Positions 3,880-22,120 of a stretch of DNA of 64,000 bases are shown here, piece by piece. Origin of the DNA: Sporopachydermia quercuum (taxonomy: Eukaryota); the NCBI GenBank assembly GCA_001599295.1, contig BCGN01000003.1, positions 1,922,001 to 1,986,000 on the forward strand. The letters are read 5' to 3'. Within the stretch, counting starts at the first letter, position 1, and every line of letters starts with the position of its first letter. The notes beneath the pieces were generated by a model. That model was not told the DNA's origin. It saw only the letters and a program-made list of their open reading frames with translations, and ran no database searches. Made by a program: the position numbers and the translations under genes.

Positions 3880-5711
3880 TCAACGCGCTTTTCCTCCGGC
3901 AGCCTTTGTTGAAAGAAGAAAGTTAGTATAACGAACTGAGGACCATGGGCAAACAATCAAACACGAACTCTTTTCAACATACCTTAAACAAAATTATGTC
4001 ACCATCCTCAACAGCATATCCTTTTCCTTCTTTTGCTACTTTTACCTTAGATTTCGCATTTTCAATGGAATCAATTTTTGCCAAGTCCTCGTATTTCATA
4101 ACATGAGCAGATATGAATGTTTTCTCCAAATCTAATAATCTTGTTAATACTTTACCCGTTCCACTTATCCCTACATTTCTTCTTGCTCTATACAGCTATA
4201 GTTCTCAATGACAGCAATACATACGACTATGAATCACGCCAGCAGCCTCCGGTGCTGAAGTACCTTTTCTAATGCTCCATTCACGGGCTTCAAGTGGACC
4301 ACAAGTGAAAAAGCTAATCAACCTAAGATTTTCCCTCATTGTTTGAATAATCTTTGGTAAAACGCTACCACCAACTCCCAAATCATTGTAATAGTCCTTG
4401 GCTTCTGATTTACTCATTTCTGCTATTTTTTCTTCTAAGGAAGCAGAAAACATTAGTAATCTATCACCTGGTGAATTTCTTTCAANCCATTCCTTGATTG
4501 CTTCTAAATAGCTATTATCATTTAACGCATAGTCCTCTTCGCTGACATTGGCAAGATAAACAACTGGCTTCGCTGTTAGCAATGTCAATCGATTGAGAAC
4601 AGCAATTTCCTCGTTATTCCAAACACTATTAGCAATTCTAGCTCCATTCCCCAATACTTCTAATGCTTTTTTACCAACCTCAACCTCTTCAGTAAGCAAT
4701 CGTTTTTCACTCATGTCGTTAGTAAACTTCACTTTCTTTGATATCTTCTCCAAGTGTCTCTCGCAGAACTCCATATCTTTAAGCATTAGCTCATCTCTGA
4801 CAATCTCCATGTCACGTACAGGATCGACAGATCCTTCAATATGAGTTATCTCTTCGTCATCAAAAGCCCTGACTACTTGGTATATTCCATCTACACTTCT
4901 TATATCACTTAGAAACTGATTGCCTAGTCCTTCACCTTTGGATGCACCTCTGGTCAATCCTGCGATGTCCCATATTGTCAATGTAGCTGGTACTTGTTTT
5001 GCTGAGCCATATACTTGCTGCAGTTTGTTTAGTTTTGCTGAGGGAACGTTCACCCTTGCTTCTGCCGGATCAATCGTAGCAAATGGGTAGTTAGCTGGCT
5101 ACGGTGATGTTAGTATGTGAAAAGCAGATCATTGACTAGGAGAGTTTCCCCATAGATTTTACATTATGGCTCGCAATCGACAATGAAACGAGACTTTGTA
5201 TTGAGCTCGATCATAATACCTAATTCTAATGATTGTATGATTTTAATGAACTTGGCAGCGGAAGGTCTACCTGACTTCCTTTACCAGGATTCAACTCATC
5301 ATTATGTTTATCACCGAAGCTCATTTCTCCAAATGACGAAACATTAACGCTTCAAAGCTTCTAATAAAAAGCACATACATTTCCAATCTTTGACTCCGTT
5401 ATTGCCTGGAAGAAAGTAGACTTTCCAACATTTGCAAGTCCTACAATACCAGCCTATTACTGTTAGTAAACCTATTACCATCCATTGATGTTTCAAACAC
5501 AACAATCATCTTGAATTCCATGAATTCCATAAATTCAACATACTGACAGATTATTGCTGAGTCTACCCAAAAACACATGGTCATTGTTTTCTGCACCGCT
5601 TTTCTTTTCTTTTTTACCTCGAGCAGGCGCTGCGTTCACTATGGAGACACTGCTGAAAGGTCTAGTACCGATCAGTCTCTGTCTAAACAGTGAAAAACGA
5701 GCAGTTTTCAT
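3880..5711 (-). CDS. YLF2: Mitochondrial Obg/YchF-family GTPase/ATPase (YLF2-type), 5 exons: 5711-5544, 5453-5379, 5098-4225, 4131-3983, 3903-3880
   Basis: Spliced frame gives Arg-rich leader MKTARFSLFRQRLIGTRPFSSV, GIVGLANVGKST P-loop, PANYPFATIDP, DIAGL, TGS-like domain, end FKAAGGKAR*. All four introns GTATGT...(TACTAAC/TATTAAC)...AG with consistent phase. Confidence 0.88.
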
Positions 5712-6226
5712 AGTTTATACACGTGGGCAAGCGGATTCTATGCAAGATTGGTCTTTCAGTGTATATTCTAAAGATTCTGTTGAAGTGCAATAAATTTTCA
5801 TATTTGGAATGAAAGATCCTGTTAATACTGTGTGCAGCAAAGAGAAGAAAAGAGAGATGATTGAATGGTTGAGAGAGGTGCATGCGAAGTAAAAAGAGAG
5901 GCAGAAAATGGCAAACAAAAACCTGGAAAACAAAGAAACGAGGAGAAGTAACAGCCAGATTAATATATAAAATCTACTATCGGGGTATATAATTGATTAA
6001 TAGAGAATCGATACTCTACGTAGACTCGAGGTGCACTTGTTGAAACTGACAGTTGCACAAAGAACTGTGATTCACTTCGATCATTGTATAATATTCGTAA
6101 TAACCTACAACGTTAATATCCAGACTGCTTCAGGAAAATCCAACGATACTTATATATTAATATATACATGAGTTCAGATATGAAAATTAAACGTTTATAC
6201 TTTTCACTGGCGTTTATATACAGAAA

Positions 6227-9009: not shown

Positions 9010-10125
9010 TGTGTTAATTCAATTGGTATCTTTTTACTTTGTTTTGTTATTATCAATTAATGTAATAATTTCAATGTACCTCATATATAGTTATAGTTAT
9101 TATGATGTGCAATCCTTAACTTTTGTTGCACAGAGTGTTGTGTTGATTCTGTGTGCCAGCCTGAGAAACTGGTGCGGAAAAGGGATGAAAGGGAGAGACT
9201 GGGGAACAGGACTCTCCAGGTATCTGTAATTCTGTGTGAGCCTCTGCACCGAACTTTCAACGGAGACTGTCAGGGAATTGCGCTTTGGGACAGGTAATTG
9301 GCCATGGAATGGAATTTATGAGTCGTTGTTCTGTACCGAAGAACAGAGACCCTTGGATAAAGGTAGGAGTTCTGCATTTTGAGATGAGCTGATAAGGTTA
9401 ACGGAAGGACAAGAGTGGGAATAGAATGAGTATAAGGAGCTGGGAAAAAGAAAGAAAAAGTTAGTNATATTTGACTGGAATAATCTTGTTTCACTGAAAT
9501 GCTTTGCATATATTCAGGACATCGACTGTAGATTCNTCTTTGTTGTTATTATGAGTAGACCCTTATCCTCTCTGTACAGTGGTTCCTCTGCAATACTGAA
9601 ACTAAGTGAAATATACTCATCGTGCCAAAGCTTTGCAGATCGTGGTTCAAGTGCGAATCAAGATCCTCCGTTTGAACTTCGTCTAAATATCAATTCCAGT
9701 TAATAAATACCTGTTTCCAAAAATGCATTCGAATTTTCAACCCGCTAATACCCATCTTCTAGTACAGCCACCATTCTTTCCCTTTGCCTATATAACTGCC
9801 TTTCGCTGTGCTCGTATTTACTCGAAGCGGTAATTACCAGCATACACAATTTCAGTCTCCAGAACAGCCTGTCCGTCACCTTTATTCTCATCGCGCGTAA
9901 TATAACATCACGTCTCTTCTCGAATTTGACGATTACACAATGGCTCTCGAACAAATATATCGAGCACATAACAACTACCTACGGCATTATTATCACATTA
10001 TGCCAGGAATAACTACTATGTAAGCAGTAATGTACCATCAGGCCCCTTCTCGCTCAACAGGTCTTGTCAGGTAATTTCCAGTGCTACAGGAACTAAGTAC
10101 ACCATGAAATCTTCATGCCGAAATT

Positions 10126-11931
10126 ATGCATTTACGTTGTGATCTCACGAAACTCCATAGAGCTCTCAACTCTTCATTCTACGTCACTTCAGCATTACAC
10201 GTCCGACATGAGCTGCGGCGGAGCCATGTGCATCCTTTGCGCTGCTTCAGCAATATTCGATATCCCAGAGGAACTGGAATCTGCATTACAAAATCTGGTG
10301 ATGCCAGAAATATTTCAAGCGTGCGAGAACTCTATTCAACCAGCTTACGCAGAATATCATCTACCTCATCACAAGTCAAGGAATTTTCACCTTTAAACGG
10401 ATCAGATTATGAATCAGACAGTTCTACCGAGCCAGCAATCCAATACCGGATTCCTGAGGGTGAAATCCGTTTTATTCTTGTCCCAATAGGCTATATAGCT
10501 TGTGGGAAGACAACCATTGCCAATTCCTTGCACCAACTCTTCGGCTGGCCTGTTGTTGACGACGATCCTTCGCAGAACCTCCCAGAGTACTGCATGAGCG
10601 TTGCCAGTGCTCTGATGTCCGAACCTGTTGTTTTTTGCGATAGAAGTAATCATCAGCAGAGCAATAGAATAGATCTGTACAACTGCATGGCCTCCATGCT
10701 GGAACCAGACTCGTTCAAGAGATTGAGGTTTATAGCGTTGTCTTTTGATCTTTCCGACGTTGAGACCGTAATGGATGTTGCGAAGAGACGGATTCTGTTC
10801 CACGGGGTGAACGTTGAAAGCGCGGACACTTCAGATGCATCCACAGCCTCAACAGTCTCAGTAGGAACCTCTACAGGAACTTCCGTATCTACAAAACCCT
10901 ATTACCTGAGAAAAAAAACGTATGATCTCAACACAGATTTAGCTATTGGAACTGTTAATTCAATTATNGAGAGATACGTACAAGCCTTTGAACCATATTC
11001 GTTCCTAGACAATCAGATCTTTGCAATGGTCATTGATCTCTCTTCTTCTACGTCAAACTCTTCGCTATCAAACGTCTCCCTTATCATAAACCTGATGAGA
11101 ACGTATAATCCCAGTTTGATCCCATGGGGTATTTCTGACGAGGAAATAGAAGCTGCTGTGTCTGCCTCCTTGGTCATCCCAGAGACGGCAAAGCTGGACC
11201 CGACACCTGAAGGGTTTACCCTGCTACCACCGCAGAGCCAAATCTCGGTGATAGTAGACAATGAGCTGCAGATCCCTCCCAGCTACTATTATCTGCGCAT
11301 CAACGTGTGGAAAGACGTTCTCCGATCTGAGATCTACAAGCTTTTTGACGCTCCAGAGATGCATTGCAACCCAGGAGCCAGAGAGGCCTTTGATACCATG
11401 TCTATGACCCAAGGCGACTTTGAATCTAAGCTTTTGGACGTGAATTCTGCTTGGAAGAAGCCAGACGCCTGGCTGTATTTACGGAAACAGGAAAGGAGAT
11501 CCTTTGTTGACTACTACGTTACGCGAGAGCACCTGGCCAGCAAACTGGCTGTGACCCTGGCCGCTCCGCGGTCTCTTCGGGGCGAACTGGAAGTATGTAG
11601 AGTGTCAGCAATGCTCCAAAGTGTTATCTGGAACGAGAGAGTTGCCATCGTGACGATTGGAATTAGAACTCCTCAGCGAACACTGCGGATTCGTGATAAG
11701 CGGATCTTTTTCGTCTTTGGTCATAAATCCAGTGTGAAGGATCCATACCGAGAGGGAGAAGCTCTTCTGGAAAGGTGGAATGGAATGAAACGACAAGGCC
11801 GAGGGCGGACAGGAACGTTTTTGTATGAAACGGAGGAAAAGGAGGAAAGTGAGATTAGTTGTATGGAATGGAGGCAAGAGAAGCCAGTTCTGTTGGATGA
11901 TTTGAAGGTGTTTAGTAAGCCTATGGTTTAG
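10126..11931 (+). CDS. Trl1 (fungal tRNA ligase)-derived polynucleotide-kinase-like + degenerate CPD-like protein lacking the ligase domain
   Basis: 601-aa ORF; FILVPIGYIACGKTTIANSLHQLFGW..DDD and VFCDRSNHQQSNR resemble the Trl1 kinase module; downstream part is positioned like the CPD module; no KxNG ligase motif; Arg/Ser/Leu-rich N-terminus. Confidence 0.7.
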   Translation: MHLRCDLTKLHRALNSSFYVTSALHVRHELRRSHVHPLRCFSNIRYPRGTGICITKSGDARNISSVRELYSTSLRRISSTSSQVKEFSPLNGSDYESDSSTEPAIQYRIPEGEIRFILVPIGYIACGKTTIANSLHQLFGWPVVDDDPSQNLPEYCMSVASALMSEPVVFCDRSNHQQSNRIDLYNCMASMLEPDSFKRLRFIALSFDLSDVETVMDVAKRRILFHGVNVESADTSDASTASTVSVGTSTGTSVSTKPYYLRKKTYDLNTDLAIGTVNSIXERYVQAFEPYSFLDNQIFAMVIDLSSSTSNSSLSNVSLIINLMRTYNPSLIPWGISDEEIEAAVSASLVIPETAKLDPTPEGFTLLPPQSQISVIVDNELQIPPSYYYLRINVWKDVLRSEIYKLFDAPEMHCNPGAREAFDTMSMTQGDFESKLLDVNSAWKKPDAWLYLRKQERRSFVDYYVTREHLASKLAVTLAAPRSLRGELEVCRVSAMLQSVIWNERVAIVTIGIRTPQRTLRIRDKRIFFVFGHKSSVKDPYREGEALLERWNGMKRQGRGRTGTFLYETEEKEESEISCMEWRQEKPVLLDDLKVFSKPMV

Positions 11932-13692
11932 CTTGTATATAGATGGGAGGCGAGCANAATGAAAAGAATAGAAAAGGAGACAAAGGNGATAAAAGAATAG
12001 AATAGAATAATACCAATTGTAGATTGACTACACGCTGAATTTAAACATGAAATGTGAACTCCCCAGGCTCAACCTTATCACACGGTTCAGCACCAGCAGT
12101 AACTACGTCAAATGATTATCCCTTATGAAAAAGGTAAAGTAATACTAATAACATAATGATAGTATAATAATAACATATTAATAACATAACAATTACATGG
12201 TAGTCGCAACCGCACAACAACAACANCATCATCATCATTATACTGCCAATTAAATACATCAACTTACAAGTATCAAGTTCAAACTATTAGGGTGAGCTTC
12301 CGGCGTTTTCTCTCAAATTGAACAACTGGATTCTTATACCTACTCTGGGTTTAAAGAGTCCGTTCTATATTCATGCTATTGTTTATATAAATATTATTAA
12401 TCCTTTAACAGGTATTTCATGTAATGGAATCAAATATGTTGTATACTCTCCGTCCTATAGATAACCCACTTGCTATTAGCCTCTGCACTTCGGGCTCTGC
12501 TCTGTGAAGAGTATTAGCTACATATGCATGTTTCTAATTATGATTGACTAGAGAATAACTATGATTCTTCGATTCTTAGGTGCAACTTATCGTAATATAG
12601 AATATTTTGTAACTAAGAAAATATTATACAATATAGTATAAATCTGTATAAGTATGATTTCTTGTCAATTCGCTATTCATAATTCTTCACTCACAATCCA
12701 CAATTCAGTCATTTAATCTCAATTGATAGAAAAATTAGCGCTANTCTTTTTCGCTCATGTTCTCTTTCTTTCCTGCGCTTGATGATTATAGATTGAATCC
12801 TTATCACCAGATCTTCCGTATTATTCGACATAAATCAATAAAACTTCAACTATAACCTCATGTCTAATAAGTTGAGAGATGTAATCCCATTTTATGAGAA
12901 GCCTGGAGAATGCATCATCAACACACNTTTCTCTTCATTAATAGAGCCACTAATACACATCTANCTATTATATTTTTATTGCAGATTCGATGAGGTATTG
13001 TTTTCAATGANAGTATTGCAATTCTTGAGTTCTGCCGAAGACAATAAGGATACTTTATCCGAATCATTACAAGAGTTGGATGAACTTCATTAGAAGCATG
13101 GAATTCGAGCTTATTCAATGAAAATACTTATTTCATAAAAAAGCTATTCAGACGAACGTAATATCATGATTTATTATAATGTAGTCGAACATCTCAACTT
13201 TCTGTGTGCTTGTGTTTGCATCGTATTGTATTGTACTGTATTGTCATTCTCACAAGAATCAACAACTCCTTTACCTCCTTCTAAAGGTATGATTTGACTA
13301 ATTAAACGGATTGGATTATAGTATGATTTTACTATGATTTTACTATACAAAAATAGGATAAATAATAAGTACTTTCAATATATTCTTGGTAGGGTGGTGC
13401 GTCACATTCCAAAGAATCAGAACCTAGTAGAGGAAAATGGTTGAGTTGTTGGGAATTGCTCTTTGCTCGTGTATCGGAAGAAACCATGCTTTCGATTGAA
13501 CCTGTTGCCTTGCTCGTTCATGTCAGAGAGCACTTAACTTGATAGTAATATCAAAGTGATATGTAATGCTCACTTGTATCAAGAAGGGAATTCTGTCTTG
13601 GTGCTTCTACGTAAAGTAATAGTAAAAGTAAAAGTTAAAGTAAAAAGTAATAGTATAGTACAGTAGTAACAAATAGAAAACATCTCTCGTAA

Positions 13693-17075: not shown

Positions 17076-19013
17076 TCAAACTGGAACAGGAAGGAACATT
17101 CTTCTAATAAAAGAAGCAATTCCCTTCCCCTGCAATCTCTGAATCGCCAGGCTTCCGTCCTCAACTGCTTCGTGGCTCTTTCTCTTCAGTTCCAGCTCAC
17201 GGGCTTCCTCCGCAATCAGCTTTCTCACCGTGGCTTCTCGCAACAGCAATAGCATCCCACAGGATACCATGAAGACGCATCCCACGTACAACTGGGGCCC
17301 TATAAATATATTCTGGTGCACCAAAGGCTTCTCCGGATTGGGGTCCTTCTTTATGACTAAAGCAACCACTTCAGAGAACAACGAGGGCACTCCCAAAGCT
17401 ATACACGCCAGCGAAAACGCACTGGGAAGTTTCTTCAGGCCTGAAAGATCTGCTGTCATAGCAGCAAAGGTAACCCAGATGGCCCCCATAGATAAACCTA
17501 CGACAGCCGCAAAGCCAATGACGCCAGCGTAGGTTTTCACCTGGGTCCATACCACAAGGCAGAAAAGACCAGTGAAGAAATTCAGGAGGCAGGTNAGACT
17601 GACTCTGCCAAACTTATCAGCCAGAAATCCAATAAAAGGCCGCGCGACAGACTGGGATGCGTTGATTACTGACACCGCAACGGCTCCTTTATGTGCCGTG
17701 AGTCCCAGGCCTTGCGTGGCATACGCACTCAGGGAATACAACAGGATCACGAACCCGGACTGCGAGAAGAAAATTACAGCATACAGTATTAGCAAAGGAT
17801 GGTTTTTCATGAGGGAATAGTCCCATAGTTTGATATCAGGCTTTATGATGTCGTTCCTGCTCCGGATAAGCAGGATCGCTATCACGCTGAGCACACAGTT
17901 GACGACCGCCATTACTCTGTAAGCCCATTGGACGGAAATGCTCTGGATCAACGCCTGGCTGATCCAGGAGAAAACTATGCCCCCAATGCCAGTCCCAGCG
18001 GCGGCGATCCCGTTGGCGATGGCCCTCCGGGTGAAAAACCATTGGGGAATAATCATGGTGCTGGGGATGAAAGTGAAGCCAATGCCAATGCCTACTGTGA
18101 GCCCTTGCGCTAGGTACAACTGCCAGATTCTCTTACTGAAGCTGGCAGCAATATAGCCACCAACCTGCAGCACCAGGCCTAAACTGAGAGTGGGCTTGAT
18201 GCCCAGGACACCTACGGTTAGAGAGACAAAAGGAGCTATCACGCAGCTGATGCCAATGACTAATCCGCCAATGAGAGCGAAATCCACTGTTGATGCATCC
18301 GGGTACTCCTTGTTACTGAGAAAATAGCTGAGATACACAGCAAAGGCCGAATTGGAGCCCCAGGCAGTGAAATTGAGCGTCATGGCGCATCCAACGCACA
18401 CCCAGCCGTAGCCTCCATCAGGAATGCTGCTGGCGTTGATGGTGGAAGTATTGGTTTCCAGTTTCTGAAGTCTCTGCATTTTTGAGTCCTGCGATAGGGC
18501 ACTTGACGGCCTCCTAGAAGCAGAATTAGGATGCTGAAGGCCTATGGGACCATCAGTAAACTCATTTTTCCTTTCAGGATACCCATTGTAGTAATAGTAG
18601 GTGTCCTCTGGTTCGTATTGTTTCTCGTACTGATTGACAGTGTTAATTCTAGAAATGGTGATAGGATCCAAGTCGTTGGAAAGAAATAGGTTATTATTAT
18701 TGTTGCTAGCCCTACTTTTGATCTTGGTTAGAAGACTCATACTGTCAGTTCCAGCGCCGGTTATTATTGGAATTTTGATAGAGCTGCTATTAGGATGAGA
18801 ATGAGGACTGGAGATAAAACTAGGGGAATTGCCGATGGTCTGCCTGCCATTGCTGTTTANTAGCTGTACAGGAATTTGCTCTTCGTTTAATTCATCTGAT
18901 GAATCAAAAGCGTTATCGAATGATATATCGGAAGAGGCCACAGAAGTGGCCACCGGAGAGATCACCGAAGATGTTTCGTTATTGCCGTTTGATGGGGGAG
19001 TTATCACGGTCAT
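17076..19013 (-). CDS. MFS monocarboxylate-porter family (MCH/ESBP6-like) transporter, paralog 1
   Basis: PDGGYGWVCV signature, IPQWFFTRRAIANGIAAAGTGIGG, GFLADKFGRV, about 12 hydrophobic segments; long Ser/Asn-rich N-terminus. Confidence 0.92.
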   Translation of the reverse strand: MTVITPPSNGNNETSSVISPVATSVASSDISFDNAFDSSDELNEEQIPVQLXNSNGRQTIGNSPSFISSPHSHPNSSSIKIPIITGAGTDSMSLLTKIKSRASNNNNNLFLSNDLDPITISRINTVNQYEKQYEPEDTYYYYNGYPERKNEFTDGPIGLQHPNSASRRPSSALSQDSKMQRLQKLETNTSTINASSIPDGGYGWVCVGCAMTLNFTAWGSNSAFAVYLSYFLSNKEYPDASTVDFALIGGLVIGISCVIAPFVSLTVGVLGIKPTLSLGLVLQVGGYIAASFSKRIWQLYLAQGLTVGIGIGFTFIPSTMIIPQWFFTRRAIANGIAAAGTGIGGIVFSWISQALIQSISVQWAYRVMAVVNCVLSVIAILLIRSRNDIIKPDIKLWDYSLMKNHPLLILYAVIFFSQSGFVILLYSLSAYATQGLGLTAHKGAVAVSVINASQSVARPFIGFLADKFGRVSXTCLLNFFTGLFCLVVWTQVKTYAGVIGFAAVVGLSMGAIWVTFAAMTADLSGLKKLPSAFSLACIALGVPSLFSEVVALVIKKDPNPEKPLVHQNIFIGPQLYVGCVFMVSCGMLLLLREATVRKLIAEEARELELKRKSHEAVEDGSLAIQRLQGKGIASFIRRMFLPVPV

Positions 19014-20428: not shown

Positions 20429-22120
20429 TCATATACTCATGATACAGAACATTCTTCTGAAGAAACAAACAACCCCTTGCTGTAATAAGGCATTTATTCC
20501 ATCCAATTCTTCCCTCAATTCCTTATTGACTTTCTCATTTGACTTCTCATCGTTCACATCTTCTAATTTAATGTCCGACGTTATTTTTATTTGAGATGAC
20601 TCATTTTTCTCACCAATATCAGCTTCCTGAAAATTCAATTTGCCAAGTATAATATCTTTCCTTTCTTCTAATATCTTATTGACTTTATGTTCCCTGGTTA
20701 ATAATAGCGATAAACTACCAACGATAAAAGCTAGACCGGCAAACAGTTGAGCATGCAAAAACACATTTGAAAGTGAACTATCACGTAATTTATAAGCAAT
20801 AAGTTGGCCGAAAGTAGTGGCAAACATACAGCATATGCAAACATATGAAAAAGCGCCTGGAAAGTCCTTCAAGCCTGCAGAATCCGCTGTTAAAGCAGCG
20901 AAACTTGACCACACTATTCCTAACACTAAACCAATAAGAATAGCAAACATCAACAAGCCAGCGAAGTTGCGAACGTTTATCCACATGCAAAGGACAAGAA
21001 CACCGTTCAGAAACGAAGCTAGAAACGTGATATTGATTCTTCCATACTTATCACAAGCAAATCCAACTAAAGGTCGTCCAACTGCTTGGGAAGCGTTTAA
21101 TATTGCTGTGATGATAGACGCTTGCTTGAACGTTAGGCCTGCAGTGTCAGTAGCAAAAGTTTGTAAGGAGAAGAGAACAATAATAAAGCCAAATAACGAT
21201 ATCACAGCCCAGCAAATGATAGTGATTAAAGCATAATTCACCAATACTGTTAATCTGAACATANTACGGTTAGGTTTTACCAGGTGATTTCTACTTCTGA
21301 TGAGAATTGTTGATGCAATGCCTAAAACAAATATGACTATGGCCATCATTCTATAGGCCCAATTGATAGAAGAGTTTCGGATAGTTNNCTGGCTTCCCAA
21401 GGCAAAAATAAGCCCACCAACACCTGTACCAGCTGAGGCAATGCCGTTAGCTAATGAACGTCTTTTGAGAAACCATTGAGGAATAATTAAAGTTGCAGGA
21501 ATGTATAAACAGCCAGCGCCAAATCCTACTAACAGTGCCTGTATTACAAACAGTTGCCACTTTTTAGTAGCGAATGATACTCCAATGTACCCGCCCGTTT
21601 CAAATGCTACACCTAATAGTAAAGTAGCATGAATACCAATAATGCTAGAGATGATATTGATTAAGGGTGCTATACCAACAGATATACCAATCGTGAGACC
21701 AAAGAGCAAACAATAGTCTGTCATAGTTGTGTCAGGATGAGTGTCATTATTCATAAAGTAGTTTAGATACACACCAAATGATGCGGCTGGACCCCATGAT
21801 ATGACATTGAGAACGAACGAGCATCCAGCGCATACCCATCCGTACCCGCCATCGGGTGGTGTCACATCAACCGGCGGTAAAGAGGCTGCCGTAGACCCCT
21901 CTGGAGATGCTGATGCGGATACCGATGGTGACGACGACAGAGCTGACAGCACTCTTGATGTTTGTCGGCTGGGGATGAAGAAAGAAGCGTTTTCTTCTAC
22001 TTCATGTTGATTTAGGTCTGGTAGATCTGTGTATGATTGTATAGGGCTCTGTAGGAAATGTATAAGGGAGGATTCTGATTTATTTGAACGGTGAGAGGAT
22101 GTTCTTGAAAGATCATTCAT
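20429..22120 (-). CDS. MFS monocarboxylate-porter family (MCH/ESBP6-like) transporter, paralog 2
   Basis: PPDGGYGWVCA, IPQWFLKRRSLANGIASAGTGVGG, GFACDKYGRIN; collinear with paralog 1 up to the C-terminal RRMF. Confidence 0.92.
   Translation of the reverse strand: MNDLSRTSSHRSNKSESSLIHFLQSPIQSYTDLPDLNQHEVEENASFFIPSRQTSRVLSALSSSPSVSASASPEGSTAASLPPVDVTPPDGGYGWVCAGCSFVLNVISWGPAASFGVYLNYFMNNDTHPDTTMTDYCLLFGLTIGISVGIAPLINIISSIIGIHATLLLGVAFETGGYIGVSFATKKWQLFVIQALLVGFGAGCLYIPATLIIPQWFLKRRSLANGIASAGTGVGGLIFALGSQXTIRNSSINWAYRMMAIVIFVLGIASTILIRSRNHLVKPNRXMFRLTVLVNYALITIICWAVISLFGFIIVLFSLQTFATDTAGLTFKQASIITAILNASQAVGRPLVGFACDKYGRINITFLASFLNGVLVLCMWINVRNFAGLLMFAILIGLVLGIVWSSFAALTADSAGLKDFPGAFSYVCICCMFATTFGQLIAYKLRDSSLSNVFLHAQLFAGLAFIVGSLSLLLTREHKVNKILEERKDIILGKLNFQEADIGEKNESSQIKITSDIKLEDVNDEKSNEKVNKELREELDGINALLQQGVVCFFRRMFCIMSI

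Follow-up and report, generated by a model that had tools for sequence, protein, structure and literature searches.

The DNA analysed here is a stretch of 64,000 nucleotides of contig BCGN01000003.1 (positions 1,922,001 to 1,986,000 of the forward strand; assembly GCA_001599295.1, Sporopachydermia quercuum), referred to below as the window. An open reading frame (ORF) on its + strand, P0001, encodes a protein related to the fungal tRNA ligase Trl1, which is treated as a single-copy, three-domain enzyme (ligase, kinase and cyclic phosphodiesterase, CPD). Judged from its sequence, P0001 is a fast-evolving, Trl1-derived end-healing half (kinase plus CPD) which has no ligase domain and has lost the active site of the CPD. 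The features of the locus, in coordinates of the window, are the following.

10126..11931, +: whole ORF, putative ligase-less Trl1 paralog P0001; single exon, 601 codons plus stop
10104..10117, +: two out-of-frame ATGs, 22 and 11 nt upstream of the P0001 start
10126..10305, +: basic His/Arg/Ser-rich leader, residues 1-60; no detectable homology, presequence-like, disordered (predicted local distance difference test, pLDDT, 31-41)
10306..10455, +: pre-kinase remnant (end of the ligase C-domain plus linker), residues 61-110, from BLASTP and phmmer comparison with the relative P0020; predicted helix at 62-78, then an acidic linker
10456..11184, +: Trl1-type P-loop polynucleotide kinase (PNK) domain, residues 111-353, from PF08303, pLDDT above 90 and a structural match to the kinase domain (KIN) of Candida albicans Trl1
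10489..10515, +: P-loop GYIACGKTT; K128, T129 and T130 kept
10558..10569, +: DDDP in place of QNDN; general-base Asp147 kept, Q145D and N146D changed
10639..10653, +: DRSNH (DRNNH motif of Trl1); D172, R173, N175 and H176 kept
10789..10935, +: lid; R222 kept, lid loop HGVNVE in place of RGDNHQ, then a long disordered Ser/Thr-rich stretch
11263..11835, +: CPD-like (2H-fold) domain without catalytic residues, residues 380-570, from PF08302, a custom profile, hhalign and structure matches
11410..11439, +: site of HxT motif 1, QGDFESKLLD; Q429 kept, H433E, T435K and H438D changed
11695..11724, +: site of HxT motif 2, DKRIFFVFGH; N to D524, Q to R526, H528F and T530V changed, G532 kept

An earlier reading of this DNA from its letters alone (the original prediction) had described an ORF with exactly these limits, and all the strings it quoted are found in P0001 where it had placed them. 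An in-frame stop codon lies only six codons upstream of the ATG and the second in-frame Met is residue 157, past the P-loop, so that the long N-terminal extension must be present in any product with an intact kinase domain. The region 9900-11950 is covered by DNA contigs from three public runs (two studies, possibly of the same strain) that show neither a difference nor an indel, so that the frame cannot be put down to faulty assembly. Residue 281 is X on account of one N, at 10968. Across the window there are 63 such isolated Ns (e.g., 10968, 11957 and 11987), in genes as well as in spacers and some 470 bp apart in the median, which may be masked heterozygous or ambiguous sites.

The base composition of P0001 (GC 0.465; GC at third codon positions, GC3, 0.48) lies inside the range of the 14 other ORFs of at least 150 amino acids (GC 0.36-0.54; GC3 0.28-0.55), and a horizontal origin on grounds of GC content was rejected. 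CTG is the top Leu codon of P0001 (19 of 55) and is frequent in nine other ORFs too (64 of 427); as it is a common Leu codon, CUG reassignment is not favoured and the standard code is taken as most likely.

Kinase module and CPD-like domain

The Pfam family PF08303 (tRNA_lig_kinase) matches residues 117-237 of P0001 with an E-value of 1.5e-18 and 67.9 bits (cut-off 22.7); the match takes in the first 129 of the 168 profile positions and stops short of the rest owing to the altered lid. Together with the motifs located in this region, it bears out the Trl1-like kinase module (IACGKTT, DRSNH) of the original prediction. Residue conservation was read from an alignment of P0001, its relative P0007 and 63 Trl1 sequences, and residue roles were taken from structures of C. 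albicans Trl1 (PMC5728400; PMC7145591). Of the 39 kinase and linker columns in which conservation among the 63 Trl1 proteins reaches 80%, P0001 keeps 24, including K128, T129, T130, D147, D172, N175, R181 and R222. Asp147, the equivalent of C. albicans D445, stands in a column that is 100% Asp, and the column of the base-stacking R222 is likewise 100% conserved. In the G-loop, S312-S313 align (HMMER) with S589-S590 of C. albicans and the equivalent of Asp583 is a gap; the vicinal Ser-Ser of the Trl1 G-loop is described as reading guanine O6/N7 (PMC5728400).

Downstream of the kinase, PF08302 (tRNA_lig_CPD) matches residues 312-570 with an E-value of 1.5e-5 and a marginal 25.1 bits against a cut-off of 23. 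With a custom CPD profile (67 Trl1 rows, paralogs excluded), P0001 reaches 13.6 bits, where the highest-scoring of 200 shuffled controls stays at 6.8, and hhalign of the CPD-like part gives a probability of 71% (E 3.6e-5) with a score of 35.3 vs 21.1 for the best of 15 shuffles. In an alignment of the CPD-only fragment, the first 88 residues or so are scattered across Trl1. The HxT columns, which are conserved in the 63 Trl1 proteins at 100% (H) and 100% (T) in motif 1 and at 97% (H) and 98% (T) in motif 2, read E-S-K and F-F-V in P0001, and the hallmark of the 2H phosphoesterases, a pair of phosphate-binding HxT/S motifs on facing strands, is thus absent; the loss of the motifs (GDFESKL, KRIFFVFG) had been noticed in the original prediction and is confirmed by the alignment. 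P0001 retains Y387 and 4 of the 9 conserved CPD columns (at least 80% in the 63 Trl1 proteins) and has lost all four phosphate ligands. In the CPD of Trl1, the scissile phosphate is held by two His and two Thr and by no other group (PMC7145591), and the change of the distal HxT His to Ala is reported to be lethal in C. albicans Trl1 (PMC7145591). Since all four of these sole phosphate holders are gone, 2H-type phosphodiesterase activity is excluded for P0001, and its CPD is, as far as the sequence goes, a pseudo-member of the 2H phosphoesterase superfamily, in which the fold similarity is kept and the motifs are gone.

Several changes in the kinase module weigh against a catalytic role of P0001. 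In the P-loop, Ala125 replaces a Gly found in every one of the 63 Trl1 proteins (G125A), and Q145D and N146D adjoin the general base. In the lid loop, R226H, H230V and Q231E alter columns that are 100%, 100% and 98% conserved, and the Ser/Thr-rich stretch that comes after it, predicted to be disordered, is about 38 residues longer than that of Trl1; the alignment to Trl1 resumes at its end, with TDLAIGTVNS. H226 and V230 occupy the positions of R511 and H515 of Saccharomyces cerevisiae Trl1, where even the substitutions R511K/Q and H515Q/N were found to be lethal (Wang et al. 2006, PMC1345694, via PMC7145591). With the lid Arg and His replaced and the long disordered stretch adjoining them, the kinase of P0001 may be inactive. 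In C. albicans Trl1, the lid mutant R532A is described as sick but alive and H536A as benign, and the authors caution against transferring structure-activity rules from one Trl1 orthologue to another (PMC7145591). The "RNA-end kinase" of the original prediction is thus sustained as regards the phosphotransfer core, which is kept, and doubtful as regards activity, the replacement of the lid-loop Arg and His having been missed.

The loss of these two residues brings a pure pseudoenzyme close in likelihood to the reading favoured below, a non-ligating 5'-OH kinase or 5'-end binder. In such a protein the kinase and the CPD would both be non-catalytic, and P0001 would be a scaffold, sensor or regulator that binds nucleotides or RNA ends, in mitochondria or elsewhere. 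The replacement of both lid-loop residues essential in S. cerevisiae, the changes G125A, Q145D and N146D and the loss of all four HxT residues speak for this view, for which vertebrate CNPase, a PNK-like plus CPD protein without PNK activity, offers a precedent (PMC5434554). It is less easily squared with the retention, on a very long branch, of Asp147 and Arg181, which serve catalysis or acceptor binding and not nucleotide binding, with the functional lid mutants of C. albicans, or with the complete kinase motifs that the other ligase-deficient paralogs retain. A pure pseudoenzyme is therefore regarded as unlikely, though as the most serious competitor. The likeness to CNPase lies in its being a ligase-less PNK/CPD descendant in which one of two activities has been lost (PMC5434554); they differ in that CNPase has a dead kinase and an active CPD, whereas P0001 has a dead CPD and a preserved kinase core.

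Absence of a ligase domain and genomic surroundings

In the Pfam scan, a check suggested along with the original prediction, tRNA_lig_kinase and tRNA_lig_CPD stand above their cut-offs and no RNA ligase domain (RNA_lig_T4_1, PF09511, with the KxNG lysine) matches P0001 at E ≤ 1. Five full-length Trl1 proteins were compared by tblastn with both strands of the 64 kb, and the matches are confined to 10462-11679 (kinase plus CPD), apart from chance-level ones. One candidate for a ligase remnant, at 5794-5904 (E 0.83 and 2.8 with two queries), was rejected as a chance match, lying as it does in a 32-codon frame between stops. The scan and the tblastn search agree with the ligase-less architecture that had been proposed from the letters.

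Homology of P0001 to Trl1 begins at about residue 61: the BLASTP high-scoring segment pair with P0020 starts at 61, and the phmmer stretch spans residues 66-231. The simplest history would be the 5' truncation of a once full-length Trl1 copy, of which the last pre-kinase segment was retained.

The gene model could in principle be an artefact, with the ligase supplied by upstream exons and the "leader" being intron or untranslated sequence. This yeast does have introns with classical signals, two of which (GTATGT...TACTAAC...AG) occur in the OLA1/YchF-like gene upstream. Exons of this kind had been named in the original prediction as a possible source of a ligase domain, and neither ligase-like coding sequence on either strand of the 64 kb (tblastn with the five Trl1 queries) nor intron signals near the 5' end of P0001 were found: on the + strand GTATGT is absent between 5113 and 11593 and TACTAAC between 3674 and 21527. 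Upstream of P0001 lie two opposite-strand genes, for an MRP-S28-family mitoribosomal protein and an HMG-box protein. In view of these data an artefact of the gene model is hardly credible.

A further alternative would be a split Trl1 like that of the Mucorales, in which P0001 would act as a tRNA-splicing healing enzyme beside a separately encoded, sealing-only ligase. In Mucorales, the ligase and the Trl1-like kinase are reported to be separate, stand-alone proteins (PMC10946435; PMC11571804), and no ligase gene occurs within the 64-kb window. Their kinases (MciKIN; RazKIN, 9D8A; LcoKIN, 9DRZ) resemble P0001 in being Trl1-type kinases apart from the ligase, with related folds; they differ in being single-domain proteins of 163-208 amino acids with a functional lid Arg and a proven role in tRNA splicing (PMC11571804), whereas P0001 has an additional, dead CPD and no lid Arg. 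A split enzyme is very improbable for P0001, as a CPD cannot work without the HxT dyad (the distal His-to-Ala change being lethal in C. albicans Trl1), P0001 is far more diverged than any Trl1, and a three-domain Trl1 is present in every named early-diverging yeast examined among the matches of P0001 (Lipomyces japonicus, Myxozyma melibiosi and Kuraishia capsulata).

The rest of the window contains a few features of independent interest.

4205-5711, -: OLA1/YchF-like GTPase gene with two canonical introns; N-terminus of exon 1 with net charge +9 in 40 amino acids
3500-3592, +: C/D-box small nucleolar RNA snR69, 60.5 bits (gathering threshold 50), the only Rfam family in the window
17076-19013 and 20429-22120, both -: two adjacent major facilitator superfamily transporter paralogs, GC3 0.55 vs 0.35

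By its basic, acid-poor N-terminus, the OLA1/YchF-like gene may encode a mitochondrial YchF paralog. TACTAAC occurs 16 times in the window vs 8.2 expected, a count reached in 1 of 100 shuffles; this excess is consistent with many spliceosomal introns with an S. cerevisiae-type branch site in this yeast. The best named relatives of an acyl-CoA dehydrogenase-like neighbour are from Lipomyces, Myxozyma, Sugiyamaella, Yarrowia, Tortispora and Nadsonia (40-47% identity), and the window probably represents an early-branching budding-yeast lineage without a close annotated relative.

Predicted structure, relatives and divergence

The AlphaFold2 model of P0001, computed with the 63-Trl1 alignment, has a mean pLDDT of 70.6, with values mostly above 90 in the kinase (residues 110-230 and 280-350), mostly 75-90 in the CPD-like part (380-570) and below 50 in residues 1-62, 78-96, 230-269 and 354-377. 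Its top Foldseek match is C. albicans Trl1 KIN-CPD (6U05; E 8.1e-19), followed by Trl1 kinase structures; the catalytic domains of CNPase match at E ~5e-4, a comparison that gives no evidence of direct orthology between P0001 and CNPase. VIA-align superposes the model on C. albicans Trl1 KIN with a Z-score of 24 (199 residues, root-mean-square deviation 2.3 Å, 29% identity), on 6U05 (KIN-CPD) with 23.5 (365 residues aligned, model 112-600) and on Mucorales stand-alone kinases with 14.5 and 13.7 (158-159 residues). Structure prediction was among the checks suggested with the original prediction, and the model matches the Trl1 KIN-CPD fold; having been built from a Trl1-dominated alignment, it provides a fold match that is not independent of the sequence evidence. 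Compared with Trl1 KIN-CPD (6U05), P0001 has the same two domains in the same order and keeps the P-loop, the general-base Asp, DRxN, the base-stacking Arg and the G-loop Ser-Ser. It differs from Trl1 in the absence of the ligase, the HxT motifs and the lid-loop Arg/His, in the much longer Ser/Thr-rich lid stretch, in an N-terminal extension of 110 residues that includes the basic leader and in a branch 2.5-5 times the Trl1 median.

An exhaustive phmmer search of P0001 against 1.84 billion representative proteins returned 99 proteins with E ≤ 0.001, 10 with E ≤ 1e-10 and none with E ≤ 1e-30, the best score being 68.4 bits; neither a close orthologue nor P0001 itself was found among these representatives. 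A word-indexed search with P0001 or with a P0001 plus P0007 profile retrieved only the same three full-length Trl1 proteins and missed P0007 itself, which makes it uninformative on distribution. In the ESM Atlas, the X-free C-terminal piece of P0001 gave only retrotransposon-gag noise (at most 0.90, low recognition), and the N-terminal piece generic P-loop kinase clusters plus one tRNA_lig_kinase cluster, all below 0.9.

The Pfam scan covered 46 of the 99 phmmer matches and motifs were tabulated for 103 proteins, among which four, P0001 and the three listed here, are ligase-deficient Trl1 relatives without HxT motifs.

P0007: 635 amino acids; N-terminal extension of ~130 residues, Pfam kinase only, lid reads EKHLNS
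P0020: Myxozyma melibiosi XP_064766935.1, 728 amino acids, annotated as "tRNA ligase kinase domain-containing protein"; degenerate ligase motif, perfect kinase, no HxT
P0086: 421 amino acids; starts at the kinase, lid RGDSHP, no HxT

GxGKT and the general-base Asp are found in all four and the two HxT motifs in none; the full RGDxHx lid is present in two of them (P0020 and P0086). P0007 shares with P0001 its layout, that is, an N-terminal extension (~130 residues), an altered lid and a total length of about 600 amino acids. P0020, whose ligase domain is degenerate and whose RGDNHQ lid is perfect, and P0086, with its RGDSHP lid, differ from P0001 in these respects, and both are much less diverged. 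M. melibiosi carries a full Trl1 (P0008) besides P0020. The P0086 cluster (P0086/P0226/P0227) and a full-length Trl1 (P0011/P0224) are both found on contigs of 7898 and 10391 bp; the equal sizes, which are all that this comparison uses, suggest that they are neighbouring genes.

In a kinase tree of 36 rows (LG+G4), P0020 is sister to P0008 (Shimodaira-Hasegawa-like approximate likelihood ratio test, SH-aLRT, 93) and P0086 to P0011 (85). As these two group with different full-length Trl1 proteins, they point to separate duplications, and ligase-deficient paralogs arose more than once; P0020 and P0086 appear to be lineage-specific duplicates. No described ligase-less Trl1 paralog of yeasts was found in the literature outside subscription journals and supplements. 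The kinship of P0001 with P0007 is less firm: the two form a clade with a support of 50 and a long-branch warning in the 36-row tree and are separate in a 101-row tree, and the C-terminal half of P0007 is not detectably CPD-like (7.8 bits, the best shuffle reaching 6.8; hhalign probability 3%). The terminal branch of P0001 is the longest in every tree, 1.35-2.68 substitutions per site vs a median of 0.5-0.57, and with no orthologue near enough, selection on P0001 is not directly measurable.

This divergence raises the question of a decaying gene, that is, a relic duplicate drifting towards a pseudogene and without present function. In addition to the longest branch and the absence of any relative scoring above some 68 bits among the 1.84 billion representatives, catalytic residues have been lost in two domains, a low-complexity stretch has been inserted, and out-of-frame ATGs precede the start. 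The one at 10104 opens a 12-codon upstream ORF and the one at 10115 a 93-amino-acid ORF that overlaps P0001; the base at -3 is A for the main ATG and T for the ATG at 10115. If the transcript starts upstream of both, they could lower or regulate translation of P0001. The upstream ATGs, like the doubtful clade with P0007, also count against the function favoured below. Neutral drift of such extent, however, would be expected to bring many stops, and the 601-codon frame is intact with no indel in the three contig sets, the kinase core is modelled with pLDDT above 90, and the eight active-site and core residues named above are kept despite at least 1.35 substitutions per site. The intact frame and catalytic core on so long a branch suggest purifying selection, and decay is considered quite improbable.

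Leader, proposed function and significance

The first 40 residues of P0001 contain 6 Arg, 1 Lys, 6 His and 2 acidic residues (D6 and E29), with a net charge of +5, and an R-3-type motif (RCF|S) is found at residues 39-42. Residues 41-85 are basic as well (8 K/R vs 2 D/E) and residues 86-112 acidic, in line with the original description of an R/S/L-rich, acid-poor leader of ~85 residues. A comparable N-terminal charge is seen in the window only in the mitoribosomal protein (+4), a zinc-finger-like ORF (+4) and exon 1 of the OLA1-like gene (+9); the maximum hydrophobic moment (0.45) is similar to that of other ORFs of the window. The N-terminus of P0007 is less basic (net +3), and P0020 and P0086 have no such leader. 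A cleavable presequence for import into the mitochondrial matrix is a positively charged, amphipathic segment poor in acidic residues, with an R-2 or R-3 cleavage motif. By these composition heuristics (charge, cleavage motif and hydrophobic moment), the leader is presequence-like and not decisive, and mitochondrial targeting of P0001 is a real possibility, at rather less than even likelihood. Yeast tRNA splicing is sited on the mitochondrial outer membrane (PMC10275265) and the CNP2 isoform of CNPase is reported to have an N-terminal mitochondrial targeting signal (PMC7246452); by analogy, these cases make a mitochondrial link plausible and prove nothing.

The function that we favour, which falls slightly short of an even chance, is that of a stand-alone, non-ligating, nucleoside triphosphate (NTP)-dependent RNA 5'-OH kinase or 5'-end binder with a remodelled lid and a dead-CPD platform. 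Domain ancestry, fold, the lack of a ligase domain and the residues lost and kept are shown by the data above; activity, substrate and localisation are inferred. A 5' truncation would have removed the whole ligase domain of a Trl1 copy, leaving a protein that cannot seal RNA, and the loss of all CPD phosphate ligands leaves it unable to open 2',3'-cyclic phosphates by the 2H mechanism. Selection would have kept the phosphotransfer core of the kinase (P-loop Lys/Thr/Thr, Asp147, Asn175, Arg181, Arg222 and the G-loop Ser-Ser), with which P0001 would use an NTP, probably GTP, to phosphorylate or bind RNA 5'-OH ends, while the dead CPD might serve as a structural or RNA-binding platform. RNAs with 5'-OH ends could thus be marked for fates besides ligation, e.g., 5'-3' decay, as the Trl1 kinase does with tRNA introns; the kinase-mediated decay of these introns via Xrn1 is a precedent for a non-ligating role of a Trl1 kinase (PMC10275265). 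The basic leader may direct P0001 to mitochondria or their surface, which is the weakest step of the proposal. From the survival of the kinase core in all four paralogs, in which the CPD and the ligase are dead or gone, and from the general base and acceptor-side residues kept by P0001 on its very long branch, we conclude that the function under selection lies in the kinase module.

According to a recent preprint (10.64898/2026.08.16.745097), the healing domains of C. albicans Trl1 are dispensable, redundant healing enzymes are unknown and fungi have "no close paralogs of Trl1". P0001 and its three ligase-deficient relatives indicate that Trl1-derived paralogs exist in some early-branching yeasts. 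Their shared pattern (kinase core kept, CPD and ligase dead or gone) points to a ligation-independent job of the Trl1-type kinase, and such paralogs are natural separation-of-function variants of Trl1. P0001 itself could not make up for the missing CPD activity and may not be an active kinase, which limits its bearing on the question of the missing healing enzymes.

In a broader and rather improbable scenario, early-diverging budding yeasts would repeatedly spin off ligase- and CPD-dead copies of Trl1 as non-ligating 5'-OH kinases. P0001, the most diverged of them, would be leader-targeted to mitochondria or their surface and would phosphorylate or capture 5'-OH ends (introns, cleaved tRNAs or mitochondrial RNAs) for decay. 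If this were true, one might look among such paralogs for the unidentified, redundant 5'-healing activity inferred in fungi.

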